From positions 15,246 to 79,245 of the IMG/VR virus record IMGVR_UViG_3300046008_000478: a stretch of DNA of 64,000 nucleotides; one strand, written 5' to 3'. This DNA is from a virus. Below the pieces are notes generated by a model. The model was not told where the DNA came from. It saw only the letters and a program-made list of their open reading frames with translations, and made no database searches. The translations under genes were made by a program, and so were the position numbers. Positions 2,356-45,370 of the stretch are shown here, in pieces (position 1 is the stretch's first letter; each line of letters opens with the position of its first letter).

Positions 2356-2911
2356 AGATGACAGTCGCCTGCTGAGTCGGCCCCACCGGGTCCACTTTGC
2401 GGGCTTCGAGAGCAGCACCTACCGGCTGCAGCAGGCCGGCTGGCAGTTGTCGGCAGAGCAGTCGCCCCGCGATGGCCGCCTGGGATTGGTCATGCGCCAC
2501 CAGGGTGCTGGGTGCTACATGATGGCCGATGAGGTGCGATTCAATTTCATGAGCTCGCTTCGCAGTGAGCAGGAATATGAGCTGGATTTTCAGGTGCGGC
2601 GGTGCTCTTCCGACATCACGGTGATCCAATCGAACATGGGTTTCGGTGGATTTGAACCGATTGACGCAACCCCACAGTTCGTCACCACTGAGCGCAAGTC
2701 AATCAAGGACTTCAACATCTTTGCCTCGCAGCTGGTGCGCACCGAGGAGATCATCATCGAGCCCCAGTCCGTGGCCGAGTGTCTGGACCTGATTCGCAAG
2801 ATGCAGGCGCCCGAGCTGGCCGCCGTGCGCAAGCGCAACCTGGACCGGGACCGCATGGATCCGATCAACCAGCAGAATTTTCACGCACAGATTGTGAGTT
2901 TGGCAGCATGA
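2342..2911 (+). CDS. Hypothetical phage protein (HFAGFESSTYRLQQAGWQLS motif)
   Basis: Overlap-coupled ORF; codon usage. Confidence 0.7.
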   Translation: MALCRDDSRLLSRPHRVHFAGFESSTYRLQQAGWQLSAEQSPRDGRLGLVMRHQGAGCYMMADEVRFNFMSSLRSEQEYELDFQVRRCSSDITVIQSNMGFGGFEPIDATPQFVTTERKSIKDFNIFASQLVRTEEIIIEPQSVAECLDLIRKMQAPELAAVRKRNLDRDRMDPINQQNFHAQIVSLAA

Positions 2912-3348
2912 CGGTAATCGCGTGGGATGGTCGCACCCTGGCGGCCGACAAAATGGCTGTCACCGGAATTACCAAAGGCTCGGTGAAGAAGATTTTTTAC
3001 CATGGTGGTGAATTGCTGGGGGTCACTGGGAACCTGTCCATCGGCATGGAAGTGATGCGGTGGTACACGGACGGGGCGGACCCGGGCAAGTTCCCCGCCT
3101 CCAACCGAAACCTCAATGAGGGATCCAGCCTGATTCGGATTGACAAGGATTGCAAGGTTTGGAAATACGAGAGCTCCCCGATCCCATTCAGGGTGGAGGG
3201 CGACCGATGCGCCTTTGGATCTGGAGATGAGGCAGCCCTGGTTGCCATGGAGATGGGTGCGGATGCGCGCCGGGCAGTGGAGCTGGCGTCCATGTTCAAC
3301 ACCACCTGCGGCGGCGGGTGCGACGCAATTGATTGGCCTTTGAAGTGA
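2908..3348 (+). CDS. Ntn-hydrolase / proteasome-beta (HslV-like) peptidase
   Basis: N-terminal MTVIAWDG-x-LAAD with Thr2 nucleophile; AFGSG motif. Confidence 0.75.
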   Translation: MTVIAWDGRTLAADKMAVTGITKGSVKKIFYHGGELLGVTGNLSIGMEVMRWYTDGADPGKFPASNRNLNEGSSLIRIDKDCKVWKYESSPIPFRVEGDRCAFGSGDEAALVAMEMGADARRAVELASMFNTTCGGGCDAIDWPLK

Positions 3349-8377: not shown

Positions 8378-8956
8378 ATGGCTACCACGCAAGAACAATT
8401 GGACCAGGATAAGGCTGAGTTTGACGCTGAGTTCGCAAATGACGCACTGGAAGAGGCGAACAACCGCGAGCAAGACGACCAGGAAGATGCCGAGGATGAT
8501 GCGGAAGACGGCCGTGTCGCAGCCAAGGATTCCATGGGTGGAGGCGAGTCGATCGAAGGATCTGATGACGCCGCAGATAGTGATGAGGTCGCGCAGCCAG
8601 CAGTGAATGCTGTGATTGCTTCGGCCCGCATGGCAGGCGATGAGCAGTCCAAAGCTTTCACCGAGGCATTCAAGTCTGAGGCCCCAATGCTGCCTGAGCC
8701 CAAGGCGCCAACATTCAAAGAGGCCTTTGCTTCAGCACGCAAGGGCGGCGAGAAGGTTTTCGAGTGGCAAGGCAAGAAGTACACCACCGAGATGGCCAAG
8801 CCCAAAGCTGCGCCAGTAGTGGCCGCCAAGATGGATGGCCCGGCGCATGAGACTGCAGCCGTTGTTGCTAAGCCCGCTCAAGGCGACCTCAAAGGTGCAT
8901 CAAGCCTGGCTGAAGCCATGGCCGGCGCCAAGCACACGGGCATGGGCAGCAAATGA
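8378..8956 (+). CDS. Acidic protein with FKEAFASARK...FEWQGKKYTT motif
   Basis: RBS AAGGA; motif familiar from phage virion-associated proteins. Confidence 0.7.
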   Translation: MATTQEQLDQDKAEFDAEFANDALEEANNREQDDQEDAEDDAEDGRVAAKDSMGGGESIEGSDDAADSDEVAQPAVNAVIASARMAGDEQSKAFTEAFKSEAPMLPEPKAPTFKEAFASARKGGEKVFEWQGKKYTTEMAKPKAAPVVAAKMDGPAHETAAVVAKPAQGDLKGASSLAEAMAGAKHTGMGSK

Positions 8957-11280
8957 GCGAAGATCTGCAGTACGCGCTGGCAGCCAAGGAGGCGTTCGCC
9001 AATGATGGGGAGCAAGTCGTCCTGGGCGCCTTGGGAGCGCGGCTGCTGATGGAGTTCGCCAAGGCGGAGTCTGACCGCCGGTTGACCGAGGAGCGCTGGC
9101 TCAGCGACTTGCGTCAGTACCGCGGCCAATATGACCCCGAAGTGCTCGCCGCTATCGGCTTGAAGCGCTCGCGTGCGTTTGTTCGCAAGACCCGCGTCAA
9201 GGTCAAGACAGTCAACAGCCGGGTGGAGGACTTGTTGTTCCCATCGGGCAGCGAAAAGAACTGGGAAATCGGCAGCAGCCCCGTGCCAAGCGTGTCCAAA
9301 GAGGAGCGCAACGCAGTAGGGCGCAACTTGATGCAGATGGCCGAGCAGGCCGCGCAACAGGCTATTGCCCAGGCGCAAGCCCAGGGTCAGCAGTTGCCAC
9401 CACAACAGCCCGCCAAGATCACCAAAGACATGGTGGACAAGGCTGTGGCTGCGATCTGCAAAGAGTCCGCCAAGAAGATGGCCAAGGTCATCGATGACCA
9501 GCTGACTGAGGTGCGTTACAAGGCGACTTGCAAGCAGGCGATTCACTCCGCCCACCTGTACGGCACTGGGATCATCAAGGGCCCGCTGGTCGAGCGCCGG
9601 GTGCGCTCCAAGTACCAGAACGTGAATGGCAAGTGGGTTGAGAAGAGTGAGACCTACGTGGTCCCGTTCGTGGACTACGTGCCAATCTGGCGCTTCTACC
9701 CTGACATGTCAGCAGACACGCTGGACAAGTGCCGCTACGTTTACGAGCGCCACCAGATGACGCATGCCGATCTGGCTGAGTTGGCTGAGCGCAAGTCGTT
9801 CAACAAGACGCAGATCATTGAGTACCTGAAGTCCAATCCCAATGGTCAGGTGACGATCAAGTACATCGACAACCAGCTCAAGATCATTGGCGATCGCAAT
9901 GCCAACCAGGGCGCAGTGGATGGCCGCTACGAGGTGCTGGAGCGATGGGGTTGGCTGACTGGCAAGGATCTGCACGATGTTGGCGTGAAGGTCGATGAGG
10001 CTCGCCACCATGAGAGTTTCTTTGGTAACGTGTGGATCCTGCCCAATGGCTCCGTGATCAAGGCTGTCTTGCAGCCTATCAATGGCGTGACCTGGCCGTA
10101 CCACATGTACTACTTCGACAAGGATGAGACGAACATCTTTGGCGATGGCTTGGGTACTGTGCTGCGTGACGACCAGACCATGCTGAATGCAGCGACCCGG
10201 CTGATGCTGGACAACGCGGCGATCTCCTCCGGTCCCATGATCGAGGTGGCCACCGGGCTGCTGAGCCGCCTGGATTCCGGCACTGAGATTGAGCCATGGA
10301 AAGTGTTCTACCGCAACGCAACTGCACCCGGAACACCCGCGGTGCGCGCCATCGAGCTGCCCACGCGGCTGGGTGACTTGTCTGGCCTGGCTGACCGCTT
10401 CGAGAACAATGCCGATGAGGTGTCGGCTGTGCCGCGCTACATGTCAGGCGAGAACATGAACAATGGCGCCGCGGCGACCAAGGGCGGCCTGTCCATGCTG
10501 ATGGGTGCTGCCAACATCATGATCAAGGATTTGATCAGCTCCTGGGATGAGGGTGTGACCCGGCCGTTCATTGCGGCGCTGTACCGCTGGAACATGCAGT
10601 TCAACCCGGACAATTCGATCAAGGGTGACTACGACGTGAAGGCGCGTGGATCTGCAAGCCTGGTGGCGCGCGAGGTGCGTGCAGCCCAGCTGGATAACTT
10701 CTCCCAAATGACGGCCAATCCATTGGATGCGCCATTCATCAAGCGTGATGCATTGCTGCGCCAGCGGGCTGAAGCCAATGAGCTGAGCGACGTGGTGAAG
10801 ACCGAAGACGAGGTCATGGCCGAGCAAAATAACCAACTGGCAGCAGCTCAGTCGCAGCTCCAGCAGGCGCAGCAAAAACTGATGCTTGATGAGCTGACGC
10901 AAAAGGTAGCCTTGCTGACCGCCAACGCAGCCAAGGCCATGGCCGAGGTCGAACTGATTCGTGCCAAAGTGGTCGAGACCAAGGTGGCCGGCGTCTACGC
11001 TGCGCTGCAGGCAGGCGGTGTTGCCACTGGCAGCCCACACATTGCTCCAGCCGGTGATGAGATTCTGCGCAGCTCAGGCTGGGTGGATGCAACACCGGAC
11101 CCAACGATTGCCCAGCTGGCTGGTCCACAGGTGCAAGGTCAACAGATGCCGCAGGATGGAAACCCCATGCTGCCTGACCAGGCCAATGTACCAGCCATGG
11201 AGCAACCTCAAACGCCCAACCTGCAGCCGCAGACTGGTGGAGTTGGCTTGCATGCCGGCATTGAGACGCAGGAAGTCTGA
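8953..11280 (+). CDS. Portal protein
   Basis: 775 aa after terL; GTGIIKGP, FYPD and FGDGL motifs; Gln-rich C-terminal barrel. Confidence 0.9.
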   Translation: MSEDLQYALAAKEAFANDGEQVVLGALGARLLMEFAKAESDRRLTEERWLSDLRQYRGQYDPEVLAAIGLKRSRAFVRKTRVKVKTVNSRVEDLLFPSGSEKNWEIGSSPVPSVSKEERNAVGRNLMQMAEQAAQQAIAQAQAQGQQLPPQQPAKITKDMVDKAVAAICKESAKKMAKVIDDQLTEVRYKATCKQAIHSAHLYGTGIIKGPLVERRVRSKYQNVNGKWVEKSETYVVPFVDYVPIWRFYPDMSADTLDKCRYVYERHQMTHADLAELAERKSFNKTQIIEYLKSNPNGQVTIKYIDNQLKIIGDRNANQGAVDGRYEVLERWGWLTGKDLHDVGVKVDEARHHESFFGNVWILPNGSVIKAVLQPINGVTWPYHMYYFDKDETNIFGDGLGTVLRDDQTMLNAATRLMLDNAAISSGPMIEVATGLLSRLDSGTEIEPWKVFYRNATAPGTPAVRAIELPTRLGDLSGLADRFENNADEVSAVPRYMSGENMNNGAAATKGGLSMLMGAANIMIKDLISSWDEGVTRPFIAALYRWNMQFNPDNSIKGDYDVKARGSASLVAREVRAAQLDNFSQMTANPLDAPFIKRDALLRQRAEANELSDVVKTEDEVMAEQNNQLAAAQSQLQQAQQKLMLDELTQKVALLTANAAKAMAEVELIRAKVVETKVAGVYAALQAGGVATGSPHIAPAGDEILRSSGWVDATPDPTIAQLAGPQVQGQQMPQDGNPMLPDQANVPAMEQPQTPNLQPQTGGVGLHAGIETQEV

Positions 11281-32738: not shown

Positions 32739-35700
32739 ATGAGCATCCTCGACAACACTGCCATTGAACAACAGCTACTGGCCATGGGCGAGAAAAAGTC
32801 CGCCGGAGATGCGCCAGCCGCGCCCAGGTCCGACAGCGCAGCCAGCGGGCCACAAGCTTTTGTTCAGCGGTATGCAGACCTTGCCGCAACCACCGGGGCA
32901 AAGCTCGGTGTGGCGCCAGAAGTTCTGCTTGGTCAATGGGGGCTGGAGACAGGCTGGGGCAAGAGCATCATCCCGGGAACCAACAACCTGGGCAACATCA
33001 AGGGTAAGAATGGCCCCATGGCCACCGACAACCAAACTGGCTCGCGTGACTCCTACCGGGCGTATAAGGACGACGCTGATTTTGGCAATGGCTTCACTGC
33101 ATTTATCGGAAACTCAGAGCGCTACCAGGGCGCCCTGAATTCAGGCGCAGATGCTGGCGCGTACTTCTCTGCCCTCAAGAAAGGTGGCTACGCAGAAGAC
33201 CCCGCCTACGTGCAAAAGGGTGTAAGCGCAACTCGTCTTGCGTCACAATTCCTGGGTGGGCGTGCTCTACCTGCAGGGCAGGTGAGTGCAACGGAGGCGC
33301 CAACCGAGGCTCCGCAGTACCACTGGGGTGCACAAGATGGTCCAACGCGCACCGTTGCCACTAAGCCAGCCAGCTTCGCTGAAAAGGCGGCAGACACCGC
33401 TATTTCCCTGGGATCTGGGTTGCTTGGTGGCGCCAAGAGTTTGACGGATGTATTTGGCGCAGACAACTCCGCATCACAATTTCTTGGCGAGCAATCCAAG
33501 AATGTTGACGGTTACACATCGGATGAGCGCAAAGCGGAGCGCGCAGCCAGTCAGGAAAAGATCAAGCAAGCTGAGCTGTACGGTTCTGCATGGGATGAGA
33601 TCAAGGCCAACATCAGTGCATTTGCAGATGCCCCCATTGACATCGTAGTGGGCGCGGTTGGATCCAGTGCCCCAACCCTGTTGAGCATGTTCATTCCGGG
33701 GCTTGGTCAAACTGCTGCTGCACGCCTGGTGATGGGCGGGATTATGGGTGCCGCACAGGGGACTGGCGCTGGCAAAGGCAGCATCTACGAGGCTGTGGAA
33801 AATAAGCTGCTGGAGTCCGGCATCGACCAGGACACAGCAAAGAAAACAGCGGCGGCAGCGCAAGCATACGACGGCCAGAATGGCGGAATGATCGCAGCCA
33901 ACGGAATCATGGGCACCATCGCTGGACTGACTGGTGTCGAGGGCTCGCTCGCCAAAATACTGGGAAAGAAGGTCGCAGAAGGCGCCGCAGAAAAAGCAGC
34001 CCCTGGACTGATTAAAACTTTTGCTAAGGGTATTGCGCAGGAGTCCCCAATAGAAGGTGCCCAAGGCGGCCTTGAGCGAGTCTCTGGGAATGTTGCTCTG
34101 CAAAACCAAGGGTACGACACTCCAACATTCCAAGGGGCTGCCGGACAGGCGGCTATGGAAAGCTTGGCATCCGCACCAATGGGTGGCGGCTTTGCTTTGC
34201 TGAGTCGCAACGGCCAGCCAGCCGGCCCAATCACACCACCCAATCCACTGGAGGAGGCAGCCAAGGCGCCTGGCGCTGTACTGTCGCGCGCAGCCATTGC
34301 GCCGGATGACATCGCCCAGCGCGCCCATGAGATTGAAGGCGAACTCAAAGACAGCGGCGGCATGCAGGCCCTGCGCTCCATTGGTGCACAACACGTTGCC
34401 CCATTCCTAGAGGCCCTGTCGATTGCCAAGGACAAGCGCCTGCCGGCAGCCGCGCGCCAGGAAGCACTGGACACCATCAACCTGGGCATGCAGTGGATGG
34501 CTGACGGCAAGACCGCGGACCAGCCAGGCAATGGATCTCCATTCAGCACCAGCTTGGTGACGCAGTCAGCACCCACTCAGCCGGGCACGGACCTAGCCAC
34601 CACAGCGGGCGGAGCCCTGACCAATCCTGGCATGCCGCAGGCTTTCGATCCCAACACGATCGATGGCGAGGTCACGCGCGTGGACAACATGCTGGATGGC
34701 CCCAAGGCATTGCCGGCGCCACCAGGCCCAGCACTCACCAATCAAACAACTCAGACGCCTGCACCCGCAGGCGTTTCTACTTCTGCACCACAGGAAATCA
34801 CCAATGTCACTCAAGCCCCTCAGTCCAAGCAAGCAGCGCAAGAAGGACAAGAAGCACCCGCAGCTGCCACCCCAGCAGTAGACACTGCGCGCACGCAGGT
34901 TTCGGCGCCCAAGGTATCTATACCCACTGGCAAGGGAACAGCTCAGTCACGAAAGCGCCGGGCCCAGCTCGATGCCATGGTTGTCAGCGGATTCGACACG
35001 GTGGAGCGCCGCGACGATGGCTTCTACCTGATCAACCACAAGTCCAACGAAGAGATGCGCCTGGATGGCATGGGTGACGCGCAGACTGCCCGGGTAGCCA
35101 TTAAATTCAAGATGGATGCGGACTCGCACGTAGCGCCATCATCCCCTCTGAATGACAAGAAGGCGCCTTCCGAGGCTCAGATTGAGGCCGGCAACTACCA
35201 CAAGCCAGTCACATCAATCAACGGCTTCAAGGTCCGTATTGAGAACCCCAATGGGTCAACCCGAAGCGGCACCTCGCCCGATGGCAAGAAGTGGTCCAGC
35301 ACCATGGCCGCCCACTATGGCGAGCTCGAAGGCACGCTGGGCGCAGATGGCGACAAGGTCGATGTGTTCATTGGCAGCCGCCCGGACAGCGACAAGATCT
35401 ATGTGATCGACCAGAAGAACAAGGACGGCAGCTTCGACGAGCACAAGGTGATGATGGGCTACCAAAGCCTGGAAGCCGCCAAGGCCGGCTACCTGGCCAA
35501 TTACGAAAAGGGCTGGACCGGGATGGGCGCCGTCACCGAGATGGGTGTGGCGGAGTTCAAGGCCTGGGTGAAGTCGCAAGAGGCGCTGAAGCCAGTGGCG
35601 TACACTGACCCCAAAACAACAGGGGTAGAGAATGACGAACGAGGATCTGACGCAGCAGGCGCTGGACTGGATACGCAATCGGAAGGAATCACTGGAGTCA

Positions 35701-38700
35701 GCAGCAGCACTGGAGAAGGAGTGCGGAATCCAGCTTCGACAAAGGGGGCTGGATCCACTGGATCTTCCGGAGCCACTCAGCTCGATGGTAATGAAGCTAC
35801 TGTCGCAAGAAACGCAGAGCTCCTAGCTCGGGTACGAAGCGCTATTGAGGGGCTGCGCGCTCGGTATCAGGCGCAGCTCTCCGTCGCAAGTACCGATGCG
35901 GAGCGTAAAAAACTCCTGCACGAAATATCTCGACTCCCCGATGTAAACGACCCTAGTGGAGAGTTGCTTCAGGGGTACTCAAATGTTGCCTCTGCATGGG
36001 AGCGCGCTTTTGGTCAATCCGTTGGTGCTTATGTAGACGGAAGGTCGTCGGCAGACGATGGCTTCCAGATGGGAAGCGATGCACTCGTAAACCTGCTTAA
36101 CCAACAGATGCCATTGCAGTGGACGATGGCCCATGAATTCAAGCACTTGAGCGAGTTTGTGCCGAGCCTGAAGAAGCTGTACGACAGAATTTTCAGCCTC
36201 ATCCCACAGGGTGCGCGGTCAGAATACCTTAGCTATCTGCACCGTACAGGCCAGGCGTCCACCAAATCTCTCGATGCGGCCACTGCCGCGGATATCGCCA
36301 AGCTGCGCCAAGAGATGGTTGCAGACTTCCTTGGGCAGCGCTTTACCGACAAGGCTTGGCTTGAGCAGCTTGCAAAGCAAAAGCCAAATCTTTTTGGTGA
36401 GTTTGTCCGCGACTGGTTGAGCATACTCAACAACGCCATACACGAGCTTATTTCCGCACTGTCAAAGGGGAATAACCCAAAAGACATTGACCGACTGATG
36501 CTGGGTCATCTGAAGCAGCTCCAGGAGATGAAACTACTGGCGGTTGATGTGGCTACAGAGTGGGCAGAGCGCAACCCAAGGATGTCAAAGAGCACAGGCG
36601 CAAGCGAAATACTGCATAGCTCCCGCATCGACTCCATCAACGAGCTCGGCAACCTCAACCTGGACGCCATGTCTATCGATGAAGACCTGGACATGGTCGA
36701 GTTCCTGAAGGCGCAGGCGGAGTTTGATGCACAGCGGCCAGCAGCCAAGGTCGATCCCAAGCGCGGCGGGCCGGTGCAGCCGCGCGCGGATATTGCCGAT
36801 GCCGAGATCCAGGCGCATGGCCTGGCGGCCGAGGATGCTTATGGCGACGCGACCTGGGTGCATACCCACAAGTCAGCCGTCATGCTGAACACCACGGCCC
36901 GCAACCTGTACAAGCAGGGCGACGAGTCCCGCATCGATCTGCTGCAAGAGCAAGACGGCAAGTGGGGCACCGAGGGTGGCATCCGCGGCACCTGGGTCGG
37001 CAATGACGGCATGTCTACCGGCGGAACTACCAGCCTGAAGATGGCTCAGAAATTCGTCAGCCGATTCATTGCGTCCAAGGATTTATTCGCACGCAAATTT
37101 GACATTGCGCAGACTTACTCCAGCGCATCCAGGGCCAACCTGCTGAATGCCTGGAATGCCTTGAACAAGATGGATGGCGTGCGCAAGTATGCCAAGGCCG
37201 ACAAGACAGCCATGTCCATGAAGGACATCGCGACCCAGTTGGGTGTGACGAAGTTCTATGACGTGTCCACCTTCACTGAGCGCCAAAGCCCAACCGAATC
37301 ATTCCTGATGGTTGAATTCACCAACAAGGAGACGAGCGAAACCCAAGAAGCCAACCTGACCATCGAGAAGGATGGCGACCAGCGCTTTGCCACCGCCCAC
37401 ACCGGAGCATTGAACCGCAACGGACTGGGCGGCGCCTTCTACCAGATGGCTGTGGAGTACGCTGCACGCAACCGGCTGGTGATTCGGCCTGATGATTCGC
37501 TGTCTGGCGTGAACACCTACCGGCGCACCGAGCAGATGCTGGCGTCCGCTATGCGCTCGGGAAAGTCCAACATCATGGTTCCGCATTCGGTGCAGCGGGT
37601 CTACGGATTCCAGAACGATGCCAAGACGCAAGATGAGCACGATGACAACGTAGTGCGCTTGCTGCTGGCCGGGCTGCGCAACGCACGCGAGCTGGCGCCT
37701 GAGATGGGGCTGCTGAACTACCACCCTGAAACCGACACCTTCACCCTGAAGAATGGGAAAGATGCGACCGGAATTGTGGATCGCATGCTGGCCAACGAGG
37801 ATGCTCGTGCATTTGGCCTGGGCCGCAGTACCCTGGCGCGCGCCGTGCTGACAGAGATGGCATTGCTTGGGCAGTTGGACGTCAAGTCCATCCAGTCCAT
37901 CGGAACCCCGCTCTTGTACAGCGCCCGCGAGGATGCTGAGCTGGAATACAAGCTGGTCGAGGACCAGTACAAGGGCACGCCTCAGTGGATGAAGGCGCCA
38001 GATGGCAGCCAGACACAGCTCACCCAGCGCCAATGGGTGCAGGTGCGCACGCCTCAATTCAAGGAATGGTTTGGCGACTGGGAAAAAGCCCATGCTACCG
38101 GCGGCGTCTGGGCAACAAAAGAAGATGTGTCCAAGGTCGTGGGCTCAGATGGTGAGCCTCTGGTGGTTTACCACGGGACCGACAAGGGCGGATTCATGGC
38201 GTTCAACCAGCCCGGCGGCACCAAGCGCGGCGACCTGGGAGTCTTCACGACCAGCAATGAAGGCATGGCTCGCAGCTATGTCCGCAAGGGTCGGCCGCAG
38301 GATATGACGCCACCAGTTGGGCTAGGCGACCTGGAGGAAATTGGCTACGCTTTTGAGCAAGGATTCCGGATCGATGGTGACTTCTACGATAGCGAAGAGG
38401 AGGCTCGCGATGCGGCGCAAGAGGGGGATGTGATTGCTCCAGCTGTGCGCGCCATGGATATTGATGGCTATTTTATAGATGGGCCACGGGAGACTGGTCA
38501 TTTCTTTGCAACCATGGACGATGCGGTGGAAGAGGCGCTTGGCTTGTACGACGGAGCAACCGGAATCTCCACAATTTACGCCGCCTTCGCCAACATCCGC
38601 CACCCAAATGAGACCAATTTTGAAGGCGCACTCTGGGGTGGCGAGCGACCAGAGCAGTACGTTGTATCGATTGATGGGGATCTGCAGTCGCGCGCGGATG

Positions 38701-41700
38701 GTAAGCAATACTTCACCCGAGAAGAGGCCGAGGCGTTCGCCAAAGAGCATCCCAACCCACTCTACCAGGATGACGATGGCAGTGACTACATCGAGCCAGC
38801 TCAAGACCACTACCAAACCACCGACGACGCAGTGCGCGAAGGCCTGAAGCATGGCCACGACGGCACGATCATTCGCGAGGTTATTGATGACGGCGGCGGA
38901 ATTGGCTACGACGACATGCCTTCCGATGTGTTTGTGGCCAACAAGCCAGAGCAGTTGAAGTCGGCAGACTGGAACACGGGTGAGTTTGGATCGTCGGATG
39001 ACCTGCGGTACAGCGAGAGACTCATCGAAGCATCGTCAGCGCAGCACCAAATGGAGATCGAAAGGGAGGAGAGGGAGATTGCCGCCACCACTCGATTGTC
39101 TGCCGCAGAGCAGAGCTCCATCGCCATCGAGGCTGAACTCATTGGCATACCAAAAAGCAAGCTTGAGCTTGAGGTGCGTCGTATTAAGGCGCAGTTCCCA
39201 GCATCTGCGGGCTGGGCGCCCATGGAATTCGACAAGATCAATAAAGCCGAGTACGCCAAGAGGGGCGTCCTGATAATGCGCACTGTCGAGTTCAAGAAAC
39301 AGCCTTACGATTTCCATCTTGGGCGCGATGGAAAGGACGACACGTCTACACACAACAAGCGGGTGACGTCAGTTGCCAAAGGCATAAGTGACGAGATTAT
39401 TGGACTGTCCAACAAGGCTAAACAAGGTGACAAGAACGCGCAAATCACCATGGACCAGATTGGCTGGTACAGCAAGGTAGCCGCCATGTTGCACCATCAG
39501 TTTGGCGGCTTCGCAGACTTCCTTGCTCAGCTCATGGGGCCAACCAGCGCCAATACGCCAGTGGAGGGCAATGTCAAGTACGCTATGTCCGCACTCAAGT
39601 CGGCAATGTCTGGCAAGTGGGATGGCCTCATCGCGGACACAATACGCTGGAATGAAGGCGTCATGCAAGCGGCTGCCGGATTGGATGCGGTGATCGATGC
39701 TAATCGCGCAAAACCCAAGGCAGAGCGCCTGACCGGGAAAGCTTTAGCTCAGACCGTGGAGTTCAAGGATGCCATGGCAGTAGTTGCAGCGGCCGCACCC
39801 TATCAAGGAGAGGTGCCACAGCAAGATAGCGGAGCTAAATTCGGCATGGCCACCCAGGGTGTTGTAGAAATACTGGCTGGCATTTGGAGTGACTTCCAGC
39901 GCGGTGATGCACCCAAGACCAAGAACTACTACCAAAACCTGATTGGCCGCCAGTTCACCGGCGCCACCATCGACGTCTGGGCGGCGCGCACGCTGCGCAG
40001 AATGGCTGGATTGCTGCGCCTGCCAACGTCGGCAGAGAAGGGCGTCGCTGGCAACATTGGGGCCAAGCTAACCCCGGGCGCGGAGTTTGGCTTCGGGCAG
40101 GAGGCGTTTGTTAAGGCTGCTGAAAACCTGCGCAACTCAGGCATTGAGGAATTTGCCAACACCACGCCGGCTGATGTGCAGGCGATGATTTGGTTTAGCG
40201 AGAAAGAGAGTTGGGCTCGCAGCAACTGGACCACCAAAATTGGCGAAGGCGGCTCTGCTGAAGCAGAATTCAATCTCCAGGGCAATGCCGATCGAGATGG
40301 ACTGGAGGATGCGCGTAGGATGGCTCGCAAGGGACTGCCTCACACCGGAAGCACCAAGCCAAACAAGACGGAGGAGGGCGCCCAACAAGCATCCATCAAT
40401 GCTGGCGTGGGGCAATTCCCATCCGCCCGCGAAACCCCTCAGTACAAAGAACGCCTGGCGAAAATCATCGCCAAGGCGGTGCGCGCCCGCAATGAAGCCC
40501 GCGTGCAGTTTGAGTCCATGCGCGGCGCAGCCGACCGCTGGATTGCTGGGGTGACCCCGGCCACGGACTTCACGCCAACGGACGCCACCATGGCCGAGGT
40601 TGGCGCAGAGCTGGAGTCAAAGGTTGCCATGGGCGAAGATGCCCACAAGGTCTTGGCATTCAAAGCGCTGCCGACCATGGGTCGTTACGGCTATGACGAG
40701 CGCTCCATTGACTTCGAGGGCGTCACCCGCCAAGGCTACAACGGCGTCGATATGCTGAAGCCGCTGCTTGAATTAGCCAAGGACAAGGCGCAGGATGGCC
40801 TGCTGTTTGGACGCGTCTTGCGCGCGGATGAGGATATCGACTACCTGCGGCACCGCCCTGGCCTTGAACTCTATCTGGCTAAAGGCACAACGATGGAGAA
40901 GGCGCAGCCACTGCTGGACAAGCTCACGGAACTTGGCTTCCAGCAGTTCACATTCGTGGTGGATCCAGTGCGGACCCCGGGCGCCTTATCCGGCAAGATG
41001 GGGGATGTTGTTGGCCTGCGCTACATCTTCACTCCGGAATTTGCGTTGCGCGAACCCAACCCTGAGTACGGCGGCGACCAGACTTGGGCGCCTGGAGCCT
41101 TGACCGATGACCAGATCCGGGGCAGAATGTTAGCGAAGGCTGATGAGCTGCATGGCCTCTCTGATGACCTACAAATGATTGCAGGCGTTTCCTCTGTTGA
41201 GAGGCGCCATTACGAGGCTAATGTTTATTTTTGGGGTGATTATGACAACGCAATTGCAAGACTTGGAGCGAGGGCTGGAAATAGTGACTCGGAAAAATCA
41301 TGGAGCGGACAGCCCTTACGCTCAGGGCTTGAGGGCGCAGATCGCCGCCGCGAAATGGACTCAGGCTCAGAAGACGCAAAGTCCTTCGCAGCTCGAAGAG
41401 ACGTACTTCGGGGGGACTCGGAGCCAGCCTTCAGCCGCCGGGACGAGGGATATAGCGGACGGGATGGAGCGGATGGCTCGGTCTCGATTAAAGGAGCTGT
41501 CCACTACGGACGGCAAGCAGGCCTAAGCGTACTGTCCGGGTCCTCTAGTGGGACCGGAATCAAAGGCGCAGAGCAAGACCGCTTGAGTGCACCAGGAGTA
41601 GACCCCCGCATCAAGCGCCGGGTCTATTTTTACATCCCAACATCAGTCGGAATTCCCCAGTCAGAGATTGGACTTGGGGCGCACGTCTACATGGCAGACC

Positions 41701-42974
41701 TGGACGGCCTGTACAACCCGCACACCACCACCAAACCTATTGCCAAGTCCGGCAATGCGCTCGAAACGGCTGTGCTGGATGCTGGATACAAGGGATATGT
41801 AAACCCAGAGCAGGGATCCATTGTGGTGCTGGACCAGGATGTTCCAGTGAGGTACGCTGGCATTAGCTCGCAGCACGCCATTACTCCGCGCGTGGTGCAG
41901 CGGGTGCAGCAGCGCATCATGACTCGCCTGGAGCGCTCCGAGCTGGTGCGCAAGCCGGTCGGCAACGAGATGCTGCAAATCATCGGGGCACGCGCGGCCA
42001 TCGATGCCGCGGCCCCATCGTTCAAGCTGCAGTATGGGGATGCCCGGGTAAATCAGGATGAATCTGCTGCGGCAGATGGCGCCCTGGCCTCCGCCGGGTC
42101 GACCTTTCAGTTTGGCGAGGCGCGCTACAGTGCCCGCGACCTGGGCTTCTACTCTGAGCTGTCAGCCCAAATGGACAAGGCCACCATGAAGCAGGCCCCG
42201 GCCGGAGCATGGAAGTCGTTCATCGGCGCCCTGGCCCAGAAGGGTGTAAAGAAGGATGAGGTCGAGTGGACCGGCATCAATGACTTCCTGGATCTCCAGG
42301 AGGGCAAAGTGTCCAAGGAGCAGATCCAGGAATACCTGCGCGGCAATGGCGTACAGGTGGAGGAGGTTGTGCTCGGAGATGAGCCGGCAATCAAGACAGT
42401 TGAGGCTGCCAAGAAGTATCTGCTTGAAAGATTCAAGGAAGATCCGGAAGAGCGCTATGGGTACAGTGATGATGCGGACTACATCTCAATCGCCAATGAG
42501 TGGCAGCTTGGAGACACTGGCCCCAACAGCGTATCAAAGTACCACCAGTACACCCTGCCTGGTGGCGAGAACTACCGCGAGGTGTTGCTGACGCTGCCTC
42601 GTGAAGATGATAAGACCAAGTCCGCGAAGGCTGCATTTGAAGAAGCCAAAAAGAAATTTGATACAGATGGGTCGCAGCCCAACTACTTCAATCTGAAGAT
42701 GGCAGAGATGGATCTATCAAGCGCCCAGCGTAACGTTGGGGGAGCGTACAAATCAAGCCATTGGGACCAGAAGAACGTCCTTGCCCACATCCGCCTGAAT
42801 GACCGCACCGATTCGACAGGAGCTCGCGTACTTTTTGTAGAAGAAGCGCAGAGCGATTTTCAGCAGGACTACCGCAAGTCAAAAGAAGCAGTTTCCAAGG
42901 CTGTTGAAAGTGACTTCAATGGGATAATTGAGCGCATGAAAAAGGCTGGTGTTTTGGAGGTGAATTGTGATTAA
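32739..42974 (+). CDS. Giant polyvalent ejection protein, part 1 (glucosaminidase, membrane region, InPase, zincin, ART-like and other domains)
   Basis: LETGWG...NNLGNIK...GYAEDP; EAGNY.K...DGDKVDVF...FDEHK; AHEFKH; FKEWFGDW...VVYHGT; TIDVWAAR. Confidence 0.85.
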   Translation: MSILDNTAIEQQLLAMGEKKSAGDAPAAPRSDSAASGPQAFVQRYADLAATTGAKLGVAPEVLLGQWGLETGWGKSIIPGTNNLGNIKGKNGPMATDNQTGSRDSYRAYKDDADFGNGFTAFIGNSERYQGALNSGADAGAYFSALKKGGYAEDPAYVQKGVSATRLASQFLGGRALPAGQVSATEAPTEAPQYHWGAQDGPTRTVATKPASFAEKAADTAISLGSGLLGGAKSLTDVFGADNSASQFLGEQSKNVDGYTSDERKAERAASQEKIKQAELYGSAWDEIKANISAFADAPIDIVVGAVGSSAPTLLSMFIPGLGQTAAARLVMGGIMGAAQGTGAGKGSIYEAVENKLLESGIDQDTAKKTAAAAQAYDGQNGGMIAANGIMGTIAGLTGVEGSLAKILGKKVAEGAAEKAAPGLIKTFAKGIAQESPIEGAQGGLERVSGNVALQNQGYDTPTFQGAAGQAAMESLASAPMGGGFALLSRNGQPAGPITPPNPLEEAAKAPGAVLSRAAIAPDDIAQRAHEIEGELKDSGGMQALRSIGAQHVAPFLEALSIAKDKRLPAAARQEALDTINLGMQWMADGKTADQPGNGSPFSTSLVTQSAPTQPGTDLATTAGGALTNPGMPQAFDPNTIDGEVTRVDNMLDGPKALPAPPGPALTNQTTQTPAPAGVSTSAPQEITNVTQAPQSKQAAQEGQEAPAAATPAVDTARTQVSAPKVSIPTGKGTAQSRKRRAQLDAMVVSGFDTVERRDDGFYLINHKSNEEMRLDGMGDAQTARVAIKFKMDADSHVAPSSPLNDKKAPSEAQIEAGNYHKPVTSINGFKVRIENPNGSTRSGTSPDGKKWSSTMAAHYGELEGTLGADGDKVDVFIGSRPDSDKIYVIDQKNKDGSFDEHKVMMGYQSLEAAKAGYLANYEKGWTGMGAVTEMGVAEFKAWVKSQEALKPVAYTDPKTTGVENDERGSDAAGAGLDTQSEGITGVSSSTGEGVRNPASTKGAGSTGSSGATQLDGNEATVARNAELLARVRSAIEGLRARYQAQLSVASTDAERKKLLHEISRLPDVNDPSGELLQGYSNVASAWERAFGQSVGAYVDGRSSADDGFQMGSDALVNLLNQQMPLQWTMAHEFKHLSEFVPSLKKLYDRIFSLIPQGARSEYLSYLHRTGQASTKSLDAATAADIAKLRQEMVADFLGQRFTDKAWLEQLAKQKPNLFGEFVRDWLSILNNAIHELISALSKGNNPKDIDRLMLGHLKQLQEMKLLAVDVATEWAERNPRMSKSTGASEILHSSRIDSINELGNLNLDAMSIDEDLDMVEFLKAQAEFDAQRPAAKVDPKRGGPVQPRADIADAEIQAHGLAAEDAYGDATWVHTHKSAVMLNTTARNLYKQGDESRIDLLQEQDGKWGTEGGIRGTWVGNDGMSTGGTTSLKMAQKFVSRFIASKDLFARKFDIAQTYSSASRANLLNAWNALNKMDGVRKYAKADKTAMSMKDIATQLGVTKFYDVSTFTERQSPTESFLMVEFTNKETSETQEANLTIEKDGDQRFATAHTGALNRNGLGGAFYQMAVEYAARNRLVIRPDDSLSGVNTYRRTEQMLASAMRSGKSNIMVPHSVQRVYGFQNDAKTQDEHDDNVVRLLLAGLRNARELAPEMGLLNYHPETDTFTLKNGKDATGIVDRMLANEDARAFGLGRSTLARAVLTEMALLGQLDVKSIQSIGTPLLYSAREDAELEYKLVEDQYKGTPQWMKAPDGSQTQLTQRQWVQVRTPQFKEWFGDWEKAHATGGVWATKEDVSKVVGSDGEPLVVYHGTDKGGFMAFNQPGGTKRGDLGVFTTSNEGMARSYVRKGRPQDMTPPVGLGDLEEIGYAFEQGFRIDGDFYDSEEEARDAAQEGDVIAPAVRAMDIDGYFIDGPRETGHFFATMDDAVEEALGLYDGATGISTIYAAFANIRHPNETNFEGALWGGERPEQYVVSIDGDLQSRADGKQYFTREEAEAFAKEHPNPLYQDDDGSDYIEPAQDHYQTTDDAVREGLKHGHDGTIIREVIDDGGGIGYDDMPSDVFVANKPEQLKSADWNTGEFGSSDDLRYSERLIEASSAQHQMEIEREEREIAATTRLSAAEQSSIAIEAELIGIPKSKLELEVRRIKAQFPASAGWAPMEFDKINKAEYAKRGVLIMRTVEFKKQPYDFHLGRDGKDDTSTHNKRVTSVAKGISDEIIGLSNKAKQGDKNAQITMDQIGWYSKVAAMLHHQFGGFADFLAQLMGPTSANTPVEGNVKYAMSALKSAMSGKWDGLIADTIRWNEGVMQAAAGLDAVIDANRAKPKAERLTGKALAQTVEFKDAMAVVAAAAPYQGEVPQQDSGAKFGMATQGVVEILAGIWSDFQRGDAPKTKNYYQNLIGRQFTGATIDVWAARTLRRMAGLLRLPTSAEKGVAGNIGAKLTPGAEFGFGQEAFVKAAENLRNSGIEEFANTTPADVQAMIWFSEKESWARSNWTTKIGEGGSAEAEFNLQGNADRDGLEDARRMARKGLPHTGSTKPNKTEEGAQQASINAGVGQFPSARETPQYKERLAKIIAKAVRARNEARVQFESMRGAADRWIAGVTPATDFTPTDATMAEVGAELESKVAMGEDAHKVLAFKALPTMGRYGYDERSIDFEGVTRQGYNGVDMLKPLLELAKDKAQDGLLFGRVLRADEDIDYLRHRPGLELYLAKGTTMEKAQPLLDKLTELGFQQFTFVVDPVRTPGALSGKMGDVVGLRYIFTPEFALREPNPEYGGDQTWAPGALTDDQIRGRMLAKADELHGLSDDLQMIAGVSSVERRHYEANVYFWGDYDNAIARLGARAGNSDSEKSWSGQPLRSGLEGADRRREMDSGSEDAKSFAARRDVLRGDSEPAFSRRDEGYSGRDGADGSVSIKGAVHYGRQAGLSVLSGSSSGTGIKGAEQDRLSAPGVDPRIKRRVYFYIPTSVGIPQSEIGLGAHVYMADLDGLYNPHTTTKPIAKSGNALETAVLDAGYKGYVNPEQGSIVVLDQDVPVRYAGISSQHAITPRVVQRVQQRIMTRLERSELVRKPVGNEMLQIIGARAAIDAAAPSFKLQYGDARVNQDESAAADGALASAGSTFQFGEARYSARDLGFYSELSAQMDKATMKQAPAGAWKSFIGALAQKGVKKDEVEWTGINDFLDLQEGKVSKEQIQEYLRGNGVQVEEVVLGDEPAIKTVEAAKKYLLERFKEDPEERYGYSDDADYISIANEWQLGDTGPNSVSKYHQYTLPGGENYREVLLTLPREDDKTKSAKAAFEEAKKKFDTDGSQPNYFNLKMAEMDLSSAQRNVGGAYKSSHWDQKNVLAHIRLNDRTDSTGARVLFVEEAQSDFQQDYRKSKEAVSKAVESDFNGIIERMKKAGVLEVNCD

Positions 42975-43647
42975 AAAGTTCTTTGTCTACCAGCACAAAA
43001 CAGCAGACACCTTGACGGTTTTCTATATTGGGAAAGGGTCGCTAAAAAAAGGTGGCTTTGATAGGGCGTATGTTTCAAAGAAGCGCAGTAAATTCTGGCA
43101 GGCCATTGTTGCAAAGCATGGTCTTGTTGTTGAAATTCTTGATTCATTCGACACAGAGCAAGAGGCTTTTGAATCAGAGCGCCAGTTAATCTCCTTGCAC
43201 AAGCGCCGATCTGACGGAGGGACATTGTGCAATATGACTCTCGGCGGAGATGGTCACTTGGGATTAACAGCATCGCCAGAAGCAAGGGCCAAACTTAGCG
43301 CCGCATTGTCTGGCGAGAAGCATCCGAACTGGGGCAAGAAACTATCAGCAGAAACGTGCCGCAGAAAGTCCGAGTCGCTAAAGGCCAGTCCCCACAATCT
43401 CAAGGGAAAGAAGTTGCCTGATTGGTGGAAGTCTCGTATTGCTGCAACGAAGGTTGGCGAACTCAATCCTATGTATGGCAAGACCGGGTCTGCGAATCCA
43501 AACAGTCGCAAGGTGCGCGATGCTGGAACTGGCCGCATTTATGACAGTGTTCTTATTGCAGCTGATGCCAATGGCTACAAAATGAAAACACTTTACAACT
43601 GGCTATCAGGTCACCGACCAAACCCAACCTCACTGGAGTTCGCATAA
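42967..43647 (+). CDS. GIY-YIG-type homing endonuclease with NUMOD3 repeats
   Basis: FVYQH...FYIGKG..R; NMTLGGDG; HPNWGKK and NPMYGK; AT-richer than flanks. Confidence 0.85.
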   Translation: MIKKFFVYQHKTADTLTVFYIGKGSLKKGGFDRAYVSKKRSKFWQAIVAKHGLVVEILDSFDTEQEAFESERQLISLHKRRSDGGTLCNMTLGGDGHLGLTASPEARAKLSAALSGEKHPNWGKKLSAETCRRKSESLKASPHNLKGKKLPDWWKSRIAATKVGELNPMYGKTGSANPNSRKVRDAGTGRIYDSVLIAADANGYKMKTLYNWLSGHRPNPTSLEFA

Positions 43648-44702
43648 TGGCCTGCCAATACACCTACAAAGGAAGCACCTATGAAGCGTGGGAGTTTGAG
43701 GACGTCTTAAAGGCAATGTCACCATCTGAGGCCTCCGCCTTCATTCCTGGAGTGAAGTCAGTTCCAGATGCTCCATTCACCCAGAACACGCAAGGCTGGC
43801 TGAACCTGGCACTCAAGCGCGTCATGAAGCTGGCGGTGGATGGAGGCTACGACAAGGTGGCATTCGTGAATGGCGAGCAGTCTGCGGATCGGTACAGCCT
43901 ATCTAAGTCCGTCGCAAAAGTTGATTGGTACAAAGCGCAAAGCGAGTACGGCACAAGGATTGTCGAGATCGAAACCACGGCGGATGATACGGCCATGCTG
44001 TATGTTGATGATGCCGGATTGATTGTTAGGGTTGGCTCGCGTACCGCCGCCTTGAAGCAGCTTCAGGGTCGCCAGCTAGACGAGGCGCTCGGAAAGGACT
44101 TTGCTAACAAGGTCTTGTCAGAAGACGATGGCAGCTCCAGCGGGGATGGACTGAACATCGGCGGCGAAGGCATGAAGACCTTCTACAACTCCATCGTGCC
44201 CAATGCCGCCAAGGCCTTACTGAAGAAGCTGGGTGGCGGGCAGATGGAGTTCGTCAAAGGCATGACGGCCGACAAGCAAGGCTGGCACATCACCGACCCA
44301 TCCAACACCACCACCGGTAAGTGGATGCTCAAGAGCAGCGACTACAACTCAAAAGGTTTGCACTTTGACACTGAAGCCGCGGCCAAGGAGGCGCTTGCAG
44401 AAAAGCAAGTGAAGCTCAGTCAGCCAGGATTCACCATCACCGACGCCATGCGCGAGAAGGTGGGCAACGGAATGCCACTGTTCAGCATGCGTGACACCCA
44501 GGCGCTGGATGCGGAGCAAGCCCACCAGGACGACGCTCCGGCTACTCCAAAGGCCAGGAAGTACGCCGGCGCCAAGGTGGACATCCAGGTGAAAATTGAG
44601 GACACGGGCGAGGTGGCAACCCTTAGAATGGATGTACACCAAACGATTGACGACTTTGATAGCCGTCAAGCAAACATGCAGACGCTGCTGGATTGCCTGT
44701 AA
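43647..44702 (+). CDS. Giant ejection protein, part 2
   Basis: VPDAPF...W..LALKR...GYD.VA...GEQ.ADRY continues the domain ending part 1. Confidence 0.85.
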   Translation: MACQYTYKGSTYEAWEFEDVLKAMSPSEASAFIPGVKSVPDAPFTQNTQGWLNLALKRVMKLAVDGGYDKVAFVNGEQSADRYSLSKSVAKVDWYKAQSEYGTRIVEIETTADDTAMLYVDDAGLIVRVGSRTAALKQLQGRQLDEALGKDFANKVLSEDDGSSSGDGLNIGGEGMKTFYNSIVPNAAKALLKKLGGGQMEFVKGMTADKQGWHITDPSNTTTGKWMLKSSDYNSKGLHFDTEAAAKEALAEKQVKLSQPGFTITDAMREKVGNGMPLFSMRDTQALDAEQAHQDDAPATPKARKYAGAKVDIQVKIEDTGEVATLRMDVHQTIDDFDSRQANMQTLLDCL

Positions 44703-45151
44703 TGAAAATTGTCAAGTCGACCGAAGACCTCAAGCGCATGGCCCTCGCCCGGGGTGCTAGCGCCAGCTTCGGCGGTGCAAAGTTCAACAGCACCGAGGAC
44801 CGGGTGAGCTCCAGGCCCATCAAGCCTGAGCCCAAACCAGAGCCTGCCCCAGAGCCACCCAAGGAAAAGCCGCCAGAGCCACGCATTGAGCAACCCAAGG
44901 CAGTTGACCTGGCGCCCATCGTTCAGGCTGCTGTGGATGCTATGGCGGCCAGCGTGAGCGACATTGCCAAGGACAACGCCCGGGTGATGCAGGAAGTCAT
45001 GAAGGCGGTGGAGCGAATAACTGCAGCGCCTCCCGCAGCCACGACCATCACCTCTACCGTGCCAGAGATGACGGCCAAAGCCTGGCAGCTCAAAGTGAAT
45101 CGCGATACCCGCGGGTTCATGGACACAGTCGATATCAAACAAATCGGATAA
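44702..45151 (+). CDS. Pro-rich protein ending W.LKVNRD..G (first gene of the inserted cassette)
   Basis: TAATG coupling; PEP repeats. Confidence 0.7.
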   Translation: MKIVKSTEDLKRMALARGASASFGGAKFNSTEDRVSSRPIKPEPKPEPAPEPPKEKPPEPRIEQPKAVDLAPIVQAAVDAMAASVSDIAKDNARVMQEVMKAVERITAAPPAATTITSTVPEMTAKAWQLKVNRDTRGFMDTVDIKQIG

Positions 45152-45160
45152 GGAGCAACC

Positions 45161-45370
45161 ATGCAAACAGTTTCCGGGTCACTGACCCTACTCAACGCCC
45201 ACACGGACGCACCACAGGTTTACTGGAATGGAGCCAAGGTCGAAGGCATCACCGCCATCGCCATTGCAAACGGCGGGGGAATGCATCGTGTTGTACTGAC
45301 CCTGCCCGAAGACCCAATCCTTGCTGAGATGCAAGCGGCTGGTATCACCATCAAACGGAGTGCAGTATGA
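45161..45370 (+). CDS. Hypothetical protein
   Basis: RBS AAGGAG. Confidence 0.7.
   Translation: MQTVSGSLTLLNAHTDAPQVYWNGAKVEGITAIAIANGGGMHRVVLTLPEDPILAEMQAAGITIKRSAV

Follow-up and report, generated by a model that had tools for sequence, protein, structure and literature searches.

To our knowledge, NrdA of Aeh1 is the only protein known to be rescued by added peptide tails after its gene was broken by a homing endonuclease. In that system, nrdA is divided by mobE into nrdA-a plus nrdA-b, and the tails added to the two halves are essential (Friedrich et al., 2007; Crona et al., 2011, PMC3045599). Rescue by tails was suggested to be perhaps general and hard to detect by sequence similarity (Crona et al., 2011, PMC3045599). 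Herein we describe a related arrangement in a stretch of viral DNA of 64,000 nucleotides (positions 15,246 to 79,245 of the 79-kb IMG/VR record IMGVR_UViG_3300046008_000478), which in its entirety is called the window. Two successive genes, p1 and p2, are separated by the gene for a putative GIY-YIG homing endonuclease, and a short conserved peptide is present at the end of p1 (tail 1) and at the start of p2 (tail 2). We judge it probable that these conserved tails dock with each other to rejoin the p1 and p2 proteins non-covalently, and that the junction between them is a slot for which the homing endonuclease gene (HEG) is the usual tenant.

The Aeh1 precedent had been correctly named by a first-pass annotation of this DNA, and it goes beyond what was stated there, in that the Aeh1 tails were shown to be essential. 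In both systems a free-standing HEG splits within a fold a gene that is continuous in relatives, and overlaps the downstream half, without RNA or protein splicing. There are also several differences. MobE is an HNH enzyme, whereas the enzyme described here is of the GIY-YIG/NUMOD3 type. Aeh1 is one isolated case, whose tails carry opposite charges and have no known structure, whereas the tails of the window belong to a conserved family (at least 101 protein clusters for tail 2 and 82 for tail 1) with invariant cysteines. Furthermore, these tails are reused at several junction positions, including some that lack an endonuclease or carry other cargo.

Three other described systems share features with this locus. 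Intronless homing by SegF, SegG and other enzymes of T4-like phages (PMC2988022) and nucleases found at recombination boundaries (Barth et al., 2023, PMC10448857) likewise involve a free-standing GIY-YIG gene wedged between co-transcribed genes. Spread by cutting of the endonuclease-free allele and co-conversion of the flanks would be expected in each case, and a mosaic patch surrounds the nuclease gene when the window is compared with its unsplit relative P0122. However, Seg genes reside between complete genes, whereas the ‘intergenic’ site considered here lies in the middle of a fold and would exist only through docking tails, and homing at this site is a prediction from sequence comparisons. 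The ‘fractured genes’ (Dassa et al., 2009, PMC2677866) come, like this locus, from phage-like metagenomic DNA and have the same order of parts, with a host half and short peptide, an endonuclease open reading frame (ORF), and a second short peptide and host half. In those genes intein halves ligate the host protein, whereas here the hallmarks of inteins are absent on inspection and the tails are too short. Lastly, the host gene shares the polyvalent architecture surveyed by Iyer et al. (2017, PMC5512222), wherein a single polypeptide of great length, encoded by a phage or plasmid, carries many effector-type domains, and differs in that its split domain lacks a Pfam or PHROG family and carries large insertions. 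The words homing, intein and split are absent from that survey, and full-text literature searches yielded no description of a split arrangement flanked by such tails.

The features of the locus are as follows, all on the plus strand of the window.

32739..42974, p1 gene from the ORF list, 3411 amino acids, a putative giant polyvalent virion protein with the C-terminus VLFVEEAQSDFQQDYRKSKEAVSKAVESDFNGIIERMKKAGVLEVNCD followed by the stop codon.
42141..42872, predicted N-terminal half of the GNAT-like domain, which ends in motif 1 (SSHWDQKNVLAHIR..VLFVEEAQSDFQQDY) and aligns to the continuous ORFs of L001-L006.
42873..42971, tail 1, a C-terminal peptide of 33 amino acids (RKSKEAVSKAVESDFNGIIERMKKAGVLEVNCD), with the stop codon at 42972-42974.
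42956..42962, putative Shine-Dalgarno sequence GGAGGTG of the HEG, read from the sequence within the tail-1 (p1) codons for L-E-V; the same GGAGGTG is present in L008.
42967..43647, HEG, 226 amino acids with a GTG start, predicted free-standing GIY-YIG/NUMOD3 gene.
43635..43638, putative ribosome-binding site GGAG of p2, read from the sequence within the final HEG codons.
43647..44702, p2 gene from the ORF list, 351 amino acids, with the N-terminus MACQYTYKGSTYEAWEFEDVLKAMSPSEASAFIPGVKS followed by VPDAPF..LALKR..GYD.
43647..43757, tail 2, an N-terminal peptide of 37 amino acids (MACQYTYKGSTYEAWEFEDVLKAMSPSEASAFIPGVK).
43758..44489, predicted C-terminal half of the GNAT-like domain, from motif 2 (VPDAPF..WLNLALKR..GYDKVAF) to ..GMPLFS.

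The p1 gene encodes Pfam domains Glucosaminidase, InPase, LPD37 and ART-PolyVal, after which come the N-terminal half of the split domain and then tail 1. ART-PolyVal, LPD domains, InPase, MuF_C and RadC are found in relatives that have the tails. By this domain content, the host is a predicted polyvalent protein with many effector-type domains in one very long phage polypeptide. The split domain comprises the last ~270 residues of p1 and the first ~280 residues of p2. The proposal made in the first-pass annotation, that the VLFVEEAQSD and VPDAPF blocks flanking the junction belong to a single domain as its two halves, is borne out by relatives in which the domain is uninterrupted in one ORF, specifically L001-L006 (phage Dfl-JY45 plus five more records from phages or viruses) and another 76 viral loci, and by a structural model of unsplit L027 in which both blocks fold as one unit.

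Comparison with the unsplit protein P0122 (3988 amino acids) reveals how closely the two forms are related. P1 of the window is 76-77% identical to P0122 over its length and reaches 90-100% identity in several segments flanking the junction, and p2 residues 38-351 match the P0122 C-terminus with 69% identity, rising to 82-100% past residue 165. A nucleotide search of a phage collection with window positions 41000-45200 yielded no match. P0122 also carries ~230 extra residues (1813-2043) in the ART-PolyVal region immediately after FKEWFGD, where the corresponding window site is 38085-38110 (p1 residues ~1782-1791). This insert is another presence/absence polymorphism within the same gene.

No Pfam or PHROGs family was found for p2 or for the C-terminal 399-599 amino acids of p1, and these searches gave no sequence match of the split domain to any GNAT family. 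A model of the unsplit domain from L027 was produced with AlphaFold from an alignment of 57 rows (predicted local distance difference test, pLDDT, 87.7; predicted template modelling score, pTM, 0.79). Foldseek with the L027 domain model returned nothing from the PDB at E<=0.001. A wide search with VIA-align against every representative listed 50 matches, and all 50 have a GNAT fold, with Z from 10.2 down to 7.3. At the top are Rv1916 (8g8k; Z 10.2, root-mean-square deviation 3.7, 142 amino acids), ICL2 (6edw; Z 10.1), and the tRNA-acetylating toxins TacT (Z 9.3) and AtaT (Z 9.2). The split domain is thus predicted to have a GNAT-like fold that belongs to no Pfam or PHROG family and that carries large insertions. 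At the position of the acyl-CoA pyrophosphate motif (Q/R-x-x-G-x-G/A), unsplit proteins read QSDWGQxGKKKGF, and split proteins read QSDFxQxYRKxK with the glycines gone.

The model also indicates where the chain is cut. Motif 1 (HWD..NVLAHIR..VLFVEExQSDW) forms a beta-hairpin (strands 220-231 and 236-244) and helix 246-254, and motif 2 (VPxAPF..W..LALKR..GYD.VAF) forms the next core helix (303-320) and strand (325-328). The linker that connects the two motifs in unsplit relatives is 45-330 amino acids long, hypervariable and unalignable. Therefore, the split is predicted to fall mid-fold, in agreement with the first-pass annotation, in the loop that leads from the fourth strand to the next helix, and this loop is likely to be the most permissive site of the fold.

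Both tails are readily defined by alignment. The tail-1 consensus is RKxKDAIxKAVDxDFxGIVERMKKAGVLEVxCD, with F15, M22, G26, C32 and D33 invariant, and the tail-2 consensus is MACRYTYKGKTYEAxEFDDVLRAMxPxEAxKYMPGV, with M1, A2, C3, Y7 and G9 invariant. Profile searches of proteins of up to 2000 amino acids locate tail 1 at the very C-terminus in 82 of 82 protein clusters (75 of which end in Cys-Asp) and tail 2 at residues 1-3 in 101 of 101. When p2 was used to query 1.8 billion representative proteins, 38 of the best 150 matches begin at residue 1 with the tail, and 107 unsplit proteins align only from residue 36-38. Likewise, alignments of split p1 proteins with unsplit proteins end 30-34 amino acids short of the C-terminus. 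No internal tail copy was found in the 107 unsplit protein clusters or in the unsplit viral loci scanned, and DNA-pattern scans of viral and genome contigs revealed split forms only, again with no internal copy. The tails are thus additions, as had been proposed, since they are strictly terminal and absent from every unsplit relative examined. In P0333, P0340, P0341 and P0343, the N-terminal tail stands ahead of other sequence, which in P0333 is motif 1 itself.

The pattern of conservation is informative. Among 14 loci, identity is 86% over the first 22 residues of tail 2, where the same codon is used for 48% of the identical residues. For tail 1, identity is 66% and 40% of codons are shared; these codon values are similar to those of the flanking catalytic motifs (43-53%). 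At loci of tail type A, the tails reach 68-71% identity, the catalytic motifs 49-52% and the HEG product 41%. High amino acid identity combined with diverged codons argues against both recent co-conversion and a constraint as a DNA target site, and we conclude that the tails are under strong selection as protein rather than as DNA.

This conservation bears on the proposal that the tails have no joining function, being neutral leftovers of a lineage-specific linker, with the halves associating through the domain core or acting independently. In favor of this proposal, the insertion site corresponds to the hypervariable linker of unsplit relatives and is tolerant of change, and the halves of Aeh1 NrdA still heterodimerize when the tails are removed (PMC3045599). 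However, neutral leftovers would not be expected to exhibit very strong amino acid conservation with diverged synonymous sites, invariant Cys, Phe, Met and Gly positions and strictly terminal placement. Moreover, the pair is kept in L106 despite deletion of the domain core and is reused at other junctions, and no unsplit linker resembling the tails was found in the unsplit clusters, viral loci or DNA-pattern scans. For these reasons, we consider the lack of a joining function to be highly improbable.

The first-pass annotation had also described the tails as richer in A and T, like the HEG. A small difference in G+C content (GC) does exist in the window (0.42 for tail 1, 0.51 for tail 2 and 0.49 for the HEG, compared with 0.53 and 0.56 for the flanks). 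However, across 17 loci with GC values of 0.31-0.62, the GC of tails and HEG follows that of the host (r about 0.93), so we rejected foreign origin on the basis of GC and instead view both as long-term residents. A broader region of the window (42300-44140) has a GC of 0.41-0.57, versus 0.58-0.67 in the surrounding gene, and this is roughly where identity to P0122 drops.

For modelling of an interaction between the tails, we used L106, in which p2 is in frame 27 codons past the p1 stop, and read through its TAA so that AlphaFold treated the two as one chain. Rows of the alignment cover tail 2 and none cover tail 1, owing to MAFFT having laid tail 1 on tail 2. In the resulting model, tail 1 forms a helix and a strand assigned by DSSP (LEVEC; pLDDT about 93), and tail 2 forms a hairpin (CRYTY and KTYE) followed by helices (pLDDT 91-95), while the junk spacer between them scores at or below about 59. 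A DSSP strand needs a partner and the tail-2 hairpin is the sole candidate, and therefore we infer that the tail-1 strand pairs with this hairpin. The model is consistent with the tails forming one small three-stranded sheet with a chain break in place of a turn. In this register, the two invariant cysteines would flank the chain break and might contact each other. A structure search with the tail model yielded no convincing relative; the closest match, the C-terminal domain of RecA, is weak (Z 4.9) and covers both tails. The MAFFT placement of DFxGIVxRM on EFDDVLRAM had raised the idea that the tails are repeats of each other, which was rejected on the basis of an hhalign probability of 0.9% (E 0.063).

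Modular polyketide and non-ribosomal peptide synthases use docking domains, including a beta-hairpin type, in which matched C- and N-terminal peptides order successive polypeptides. The tails would work similarly, in that a strand from one partner completes the hairpin sheet of the other; the setting is different, and the resemblance is one of working rather than of sequence or demonstrated structural relationship. L106 is instructive in this regard as well. Both halves of the GNAT-like core are deleted at this locus and both tails are intact, which suggests that the tails keep successive polypeptides together and do not serve only to re-form the fold. The description of the invaded gene as essential is thus presumptive, given that the core of the split domain is missing on both sides at L106. 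The L106 spacer (within 8587-9000) is 81 nucleotides long and carries a AATGCTCC...GGAGCATT hairpin and a run of T nucleotides just ahead of the p2 start.

With cysteines at the tips of both tails, it is reasonable to ask whether the peptides are ligated rather than docked, for instance as a degenerate or minimal split intein or through some other cysteine-based reaction that yields a single chain. Split inteins with a free-standing endonuclease gene between their halves are known (PMC2677866), and intein-type LAGLIDADG domains are annotated elsewhere in these giant proteins. However, the tails total only 70 amino acids (33 + 37), about half of a minimal intein fold, given that a HINT domain requires ~130 amino acids or more. 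No Cys or Ser begins tail 1 after the host sequence, as its Cys is located at the very end. Tail 2 lacks a C-terminal His-Asn followed by Cys, Ser or Thr, and the residues ahead of VPDAPF vary and include no conserved Asn. In addition, neither Pfam nor PHROG gives a match, and the model depicts a simple helix-strand and hairpin-helix. Ligation is therefore very unlikely, and from the missing intein hallmarks and the shortness of the tails we expect that the join is non-covalent or at most a disulfide. The intein-type domain in question, PF14528 (LAGLIDADG_3), is present in the precomputed Pfam annotation of three giant proteins bearing tail 1 (P0364, P0369 and P0405), and therefore true inteins may also be resident in these genes.

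The organization of the junction likewise leaves little opportunity for the frame to be restored at the nucleic acid level by an intron, or by ribosomal bypass or frameshifting across the HEG. T4 gene 60 bypass and intron-encoded GIY-YIG enzymes provide general precedent for such restoration, and this is all that favors it. The p1 gene and HEG overlap by 8 nucleotides (GTGATTAA), and the HEG stop and p2 start are joined as TAATG (43645-43649). Both overlaps had been noted previously, along with the conclusion that no room exists for intron RNA, with which we agree, because in addition to the ORF overlaps there is no Rfam match at E<=1 from 42300 to 44300. Furthermore, the relative frame of p1 and p2 varies (the same in the window, different in L031 and L137), and RNA folding energies at the two joints are no better than those of shuffled controls, which also provides no indication of hairpins masking the ribosome-binding sites of the HEG or p2. 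We regard restoration of the frame in this manner as extremely improbable.

No promoter or coding-strand terminator was found when sought from 42300 to 44900. The single terminator-like site in this region (43361-43346) is on the minus strand, and shuffled sequences yield more. Given the absence of promoters, coding-strand terminators, Rfam families and spacers, p1, HEG and p2 are most likely expressed as one transcript with coupled translation. Downstream, p2 ends in LLDCL followed by the stop codon, which places a Cys at position -2, and the following ORF (44693..45151) overlaps p2 by 10 nucleotides and starts without a MAC tail.

The product of the middle ORF matches the Pfam family NUMOD3 in two stretches (4.5e-14) and phrog_314, annotated as ‘homing endonuclease’ (8.6e-26). 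Its match to Pfam GIY-YIG is weak (E 0.082) and below the cutoff. Nevertheless, Y8, Y20, G22, R33, E71 and N89 are invariant among 26 aligned homologs (VYQH..FYIGKG..R33..E71..N89), and a profile of the family matches the solved GIY-YIG domain protein 9u75 (E 0.0086), whereas a PDB search with the single endonuclease sequence returned only noise. In total, 203 homologs were found in public data with identities of 46-89%. The ORF has its own start and stop, overlaps both neighbors, and lies in a region without an Rfam match, and so it resides outside of any intron or intein. With a GIY-YIG core and C-terminal NUMOD3, this gene is, on sequence grounds, a free-standing GIY-YIG homing endonuclease gene whose product is predicted to cleave DNA.

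To understand the relationship between the tails and the endonuclease, we collected 36 distinct tail-2 junctions through pattern and profile scans of viral, metagenome and genome contigs, of which 35 have readable upstream sequence. The HEG family occupies 27 of these 35 junctions (31-78% identity to that of the window), and does so at the canonical site between motifs 1 and 2 wherever the flanks are readable. The 3′ joint GCATAATG is identical in 11 of the 27. Four junctions are empty (L031, L106, L137 and L138). At L031, which is at the canonical site, ECD and the stop codon are followed by a gap of 11 nucleotides (AGGAGAATTAG) with its own AGGAGA ribosome-binding site, and then by the p2 ATG. 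The other three empty junctions have the 81-nucleotide spacer (L106), a p1 stop that overlaps the p2 start at another site (L137) and a 45-nucleotide spacer at another site (L138).

The remaining four junctions carry other cargo. L140 and L141 (2507-3001 in each) encode a ferritin-like protein of 164 amino acids (PF00210, 2.8e-22; Rubrerythrin, 4.8e-8), flanked by a tail pair that reads LKVKC before the stop on one side and MACVYTYKGKEYSEKEF... on the other. This junction is located elsewhere in the giant protein, and in L141 is about 830 amino acids downstream of an unsplit motif 1. The canonical junction of L111 holds an opposite-strand ORF of 117 amino acids (2577-2930, minus strand) with a coiled coil and a C-terminal hydrophobic segment. 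That of L142 (a Propionivibrio metagenome-assembled genome) holds an insert of 976 nucleotides (1442-2419) with opposite-strand ORFs of 191 and 91 amino acids that have no Pfam match. Because tails are present at empty junctions, at junctions with other cargo and at other sites, the endonuclease appears from these comparisons to be a usual but dispensable tenant, and is not demonstrably the source of the tails.

These junctions do not support the first-pass view that the endonuclease brings its own adaptors into the gene. That annotation had named in advance, as the observation that would count against it, an endonuclease-free relative with the same split and the same tails, and L031 is such a relative, although its HEG could have been lost later. 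It had also suggested looking for the adaptor pair around HEGs at other sites; the pairs at other or degenerate sites (L106, L137, L138, L140 and L141) lack an endonuclease. The idea of a mobile unit survives in part, in that the block is exchangeable with the native linker of unsplit proteins, whereas the portrayal of the tails as luggage belonging to the endonuclease is not supported.

Evidence for exchange comes from the distribution of the split state. On a tree of the p2 domain body (FastTree, with tail columns excluded and representatives clustered at 50% identity), the split state requires 26 changes, compared with a mean of 33.5 for shuffles, and at least nine changes are forced by branches with support of at least 95. 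In six sister pairs with strong support, a split protein is joined to an unsplit one. The edge of the exchange is sharply visible for P0131 (split) and P0256 (unsplit), wherein 89 of 90 residues are identical from VPDAPF exactly onward, and upstream of this point the tail stands opposite an unrelated native linker of about 67 amino acids. Together with the p1 alignments that end 30-34 residues early, the scattered split state and this sharp edge show, at the level of aligned sequences, that tail 1, stop, tenant (if any), start and tail 2 apparently take the place of the native linker as one block, bounded by the conserved motifs. The block corresponds to 42873-43757 in the window. Identity between the window and P0122 is 45-62% from p1 residue ~3200 to p2 residue ~165 and near zero within the tails. 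A donor for this divergent patch was sought among split relatives and none is clear; the flanks are equally far from split and unsplit proteins, and the tails and endonuclease of the window are closer to those of L112, while the flanks are not.

A more specific scenario would be that the HEG, the stop and start codons and both tails constitute one mobile cassette that arose with the endonuclease and homes into unsplit alleles, such that HEG-free junctions are later losses. The predominance of the HEG at the canonical site fits this scenario, as do the scattered split state and the P0131/P0256 breakpoint exactly at the tail edge. Moreover, the HEG is present in all four split forms of known context whose nearest tree neighbor is unsplit (the window, L026, L110 and L115). 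The parts are also intimately joined, in that tail 1 contains the start and ribosome-binding site of the HEG, and the HEG contains the ribosome-binding site of p2, and an origin of this type was proposed for the Aeh1 tails by Crona et al. (PMC3045599). Finally, the HEG tree mostly follows tail type, with four label changes where the minimum is three.

Other observations are difficult to reconcile with a cassette of this origin. The split and the tails are the same at L031, where there is only the short gap with its own AGGAGA site, unrelated genes occupy the gaps of L111 and L142, and the tail pair occurs at other sites without a HEG in L137, L138, L140 and L141. Conversely, such tails are absent from 15 more distantly related endonuclease genes located at other sites. 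The tails are far more conserved than the HEG, and at synonymous sites they have diverged as much as the flanking motifs, which together with the tracking of host GC marks them as old residents. In addition, the junction endonucleases fall into a short clade (179-203 amino acids) and a long clade (219-240 amino acids) separated by a well-supported branch, and tail types A and C are each paired with both clades (L110, L119, L126, L125, L131 and L011 versus the remaining HEG-bearing loci). On balance, we consider a common origin of tails and endonuclease as one cassette to be unlikely, but a competitor that deserves to be taken seriously.

The explanation that we favor, docking by conserved tails around a slot, can be summarized as follows. 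The gene for a giant polyvalent protein, which would be packaged in the capsid and injected, is cut in two within a GNAT-like domain, and the cut would be repaired neither at the RNA level nor by formation of a peptide bond. Instead, each piece would end in half of a docking module, with tail 1 contributing a helix and a beta-strand that ends in Cys, and tail 2 contributing a Met-Ala-Cys start, a beta-hairpin and a helix. The two proteins would be made separately by coupled translation, after which the tails may join in a three-stranded sheet that converts p1 and p2 into a ‘virtual’ single chain. The invariant cysteines would then lie opposite one another where the turn is cut, and in the virion might form a clasp through a disulfide or a metal. 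The space between the tails would behave as an intergenic gap that tolerates inserts, among which the HEG appears to borrow its ribosome-binding site and start from the last tail-1 codons and to supply the ribosome-binding site for p2. Tails and tenant together would be swapped for the native linker by recombination at the flanking conserved motifs, and the endonuclease probably promotes this exchange, presumably by cutting one of the two alleles.

Several considerations weigh against this explanation. Docking draws its support from modelling, specifically a single-chain model of the relative L106 rather than the window, with an overall pTM of 0.59. The covariation between the tails (VLEVxCD with CRYTY, and IIKKxCD with CRFEY) tracks one lineage split and so represents a single event. 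A disulfide is unlikely to form in the cytoplasm. The endonuclease-free junctions are compatible with secondary loss and the HEG tree with co-inheritance, such that tails-first and endonuclease-first histories both fit. The tree from which exchange is read is built from clustered representatives and has long branches. Lastly, the search for fused forms extended to proteins of 2000 amino acids or fewer for the tail profiles and to the best 150 matches for p2.

A stronger form of the proposal holds that the Cys-tipped tail pair is a portable, possibly self-locking docking module that, together with its GIY-YIG tenant, actively converts unsplit alleles of giant phage effector proteins to split ones. 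We put this forward tentatively, as a possibility that is more doubtful than not. If true, a portable docking module would allow any gene to be inserted mid-way through a reading frame with no need for splicing, and a portable docking cassette would represent a third general way, beside introns and inteins, to make the insertion of a selfish gene harmless.

Overall, this system appears to be a family-level variant of the Aeh1 principle, in which a conserved, cysteine-tipped and portable pair of peptides, predicted by modelling to dock, makes a safe slot in giant phage effector genes. The tails form a recognizable and widespread family, and the idea of rescue by tails can therefore be tested at scale with regard to docking residues, locking by cysteines and nuclease-driven spread. 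The family also lets one ask whether the purpose of docking is to restore a fold or to package consecutive pieces of an injected polyprotein together. As a natural heterodimerizing pair of 33 and 37 residues, as predicted here, the tails could serve as a tag for the assembly of split proteins. More broadly, the findings suggest that a coding frame can gain a ‘landing pad’ on which selfish or cargo genes are safely accommodated, whether an endonuclease, a ferritin-like gene or ORFs of unknown function, which is relevant to the construction and reshuffling of giant phage effector proteins.

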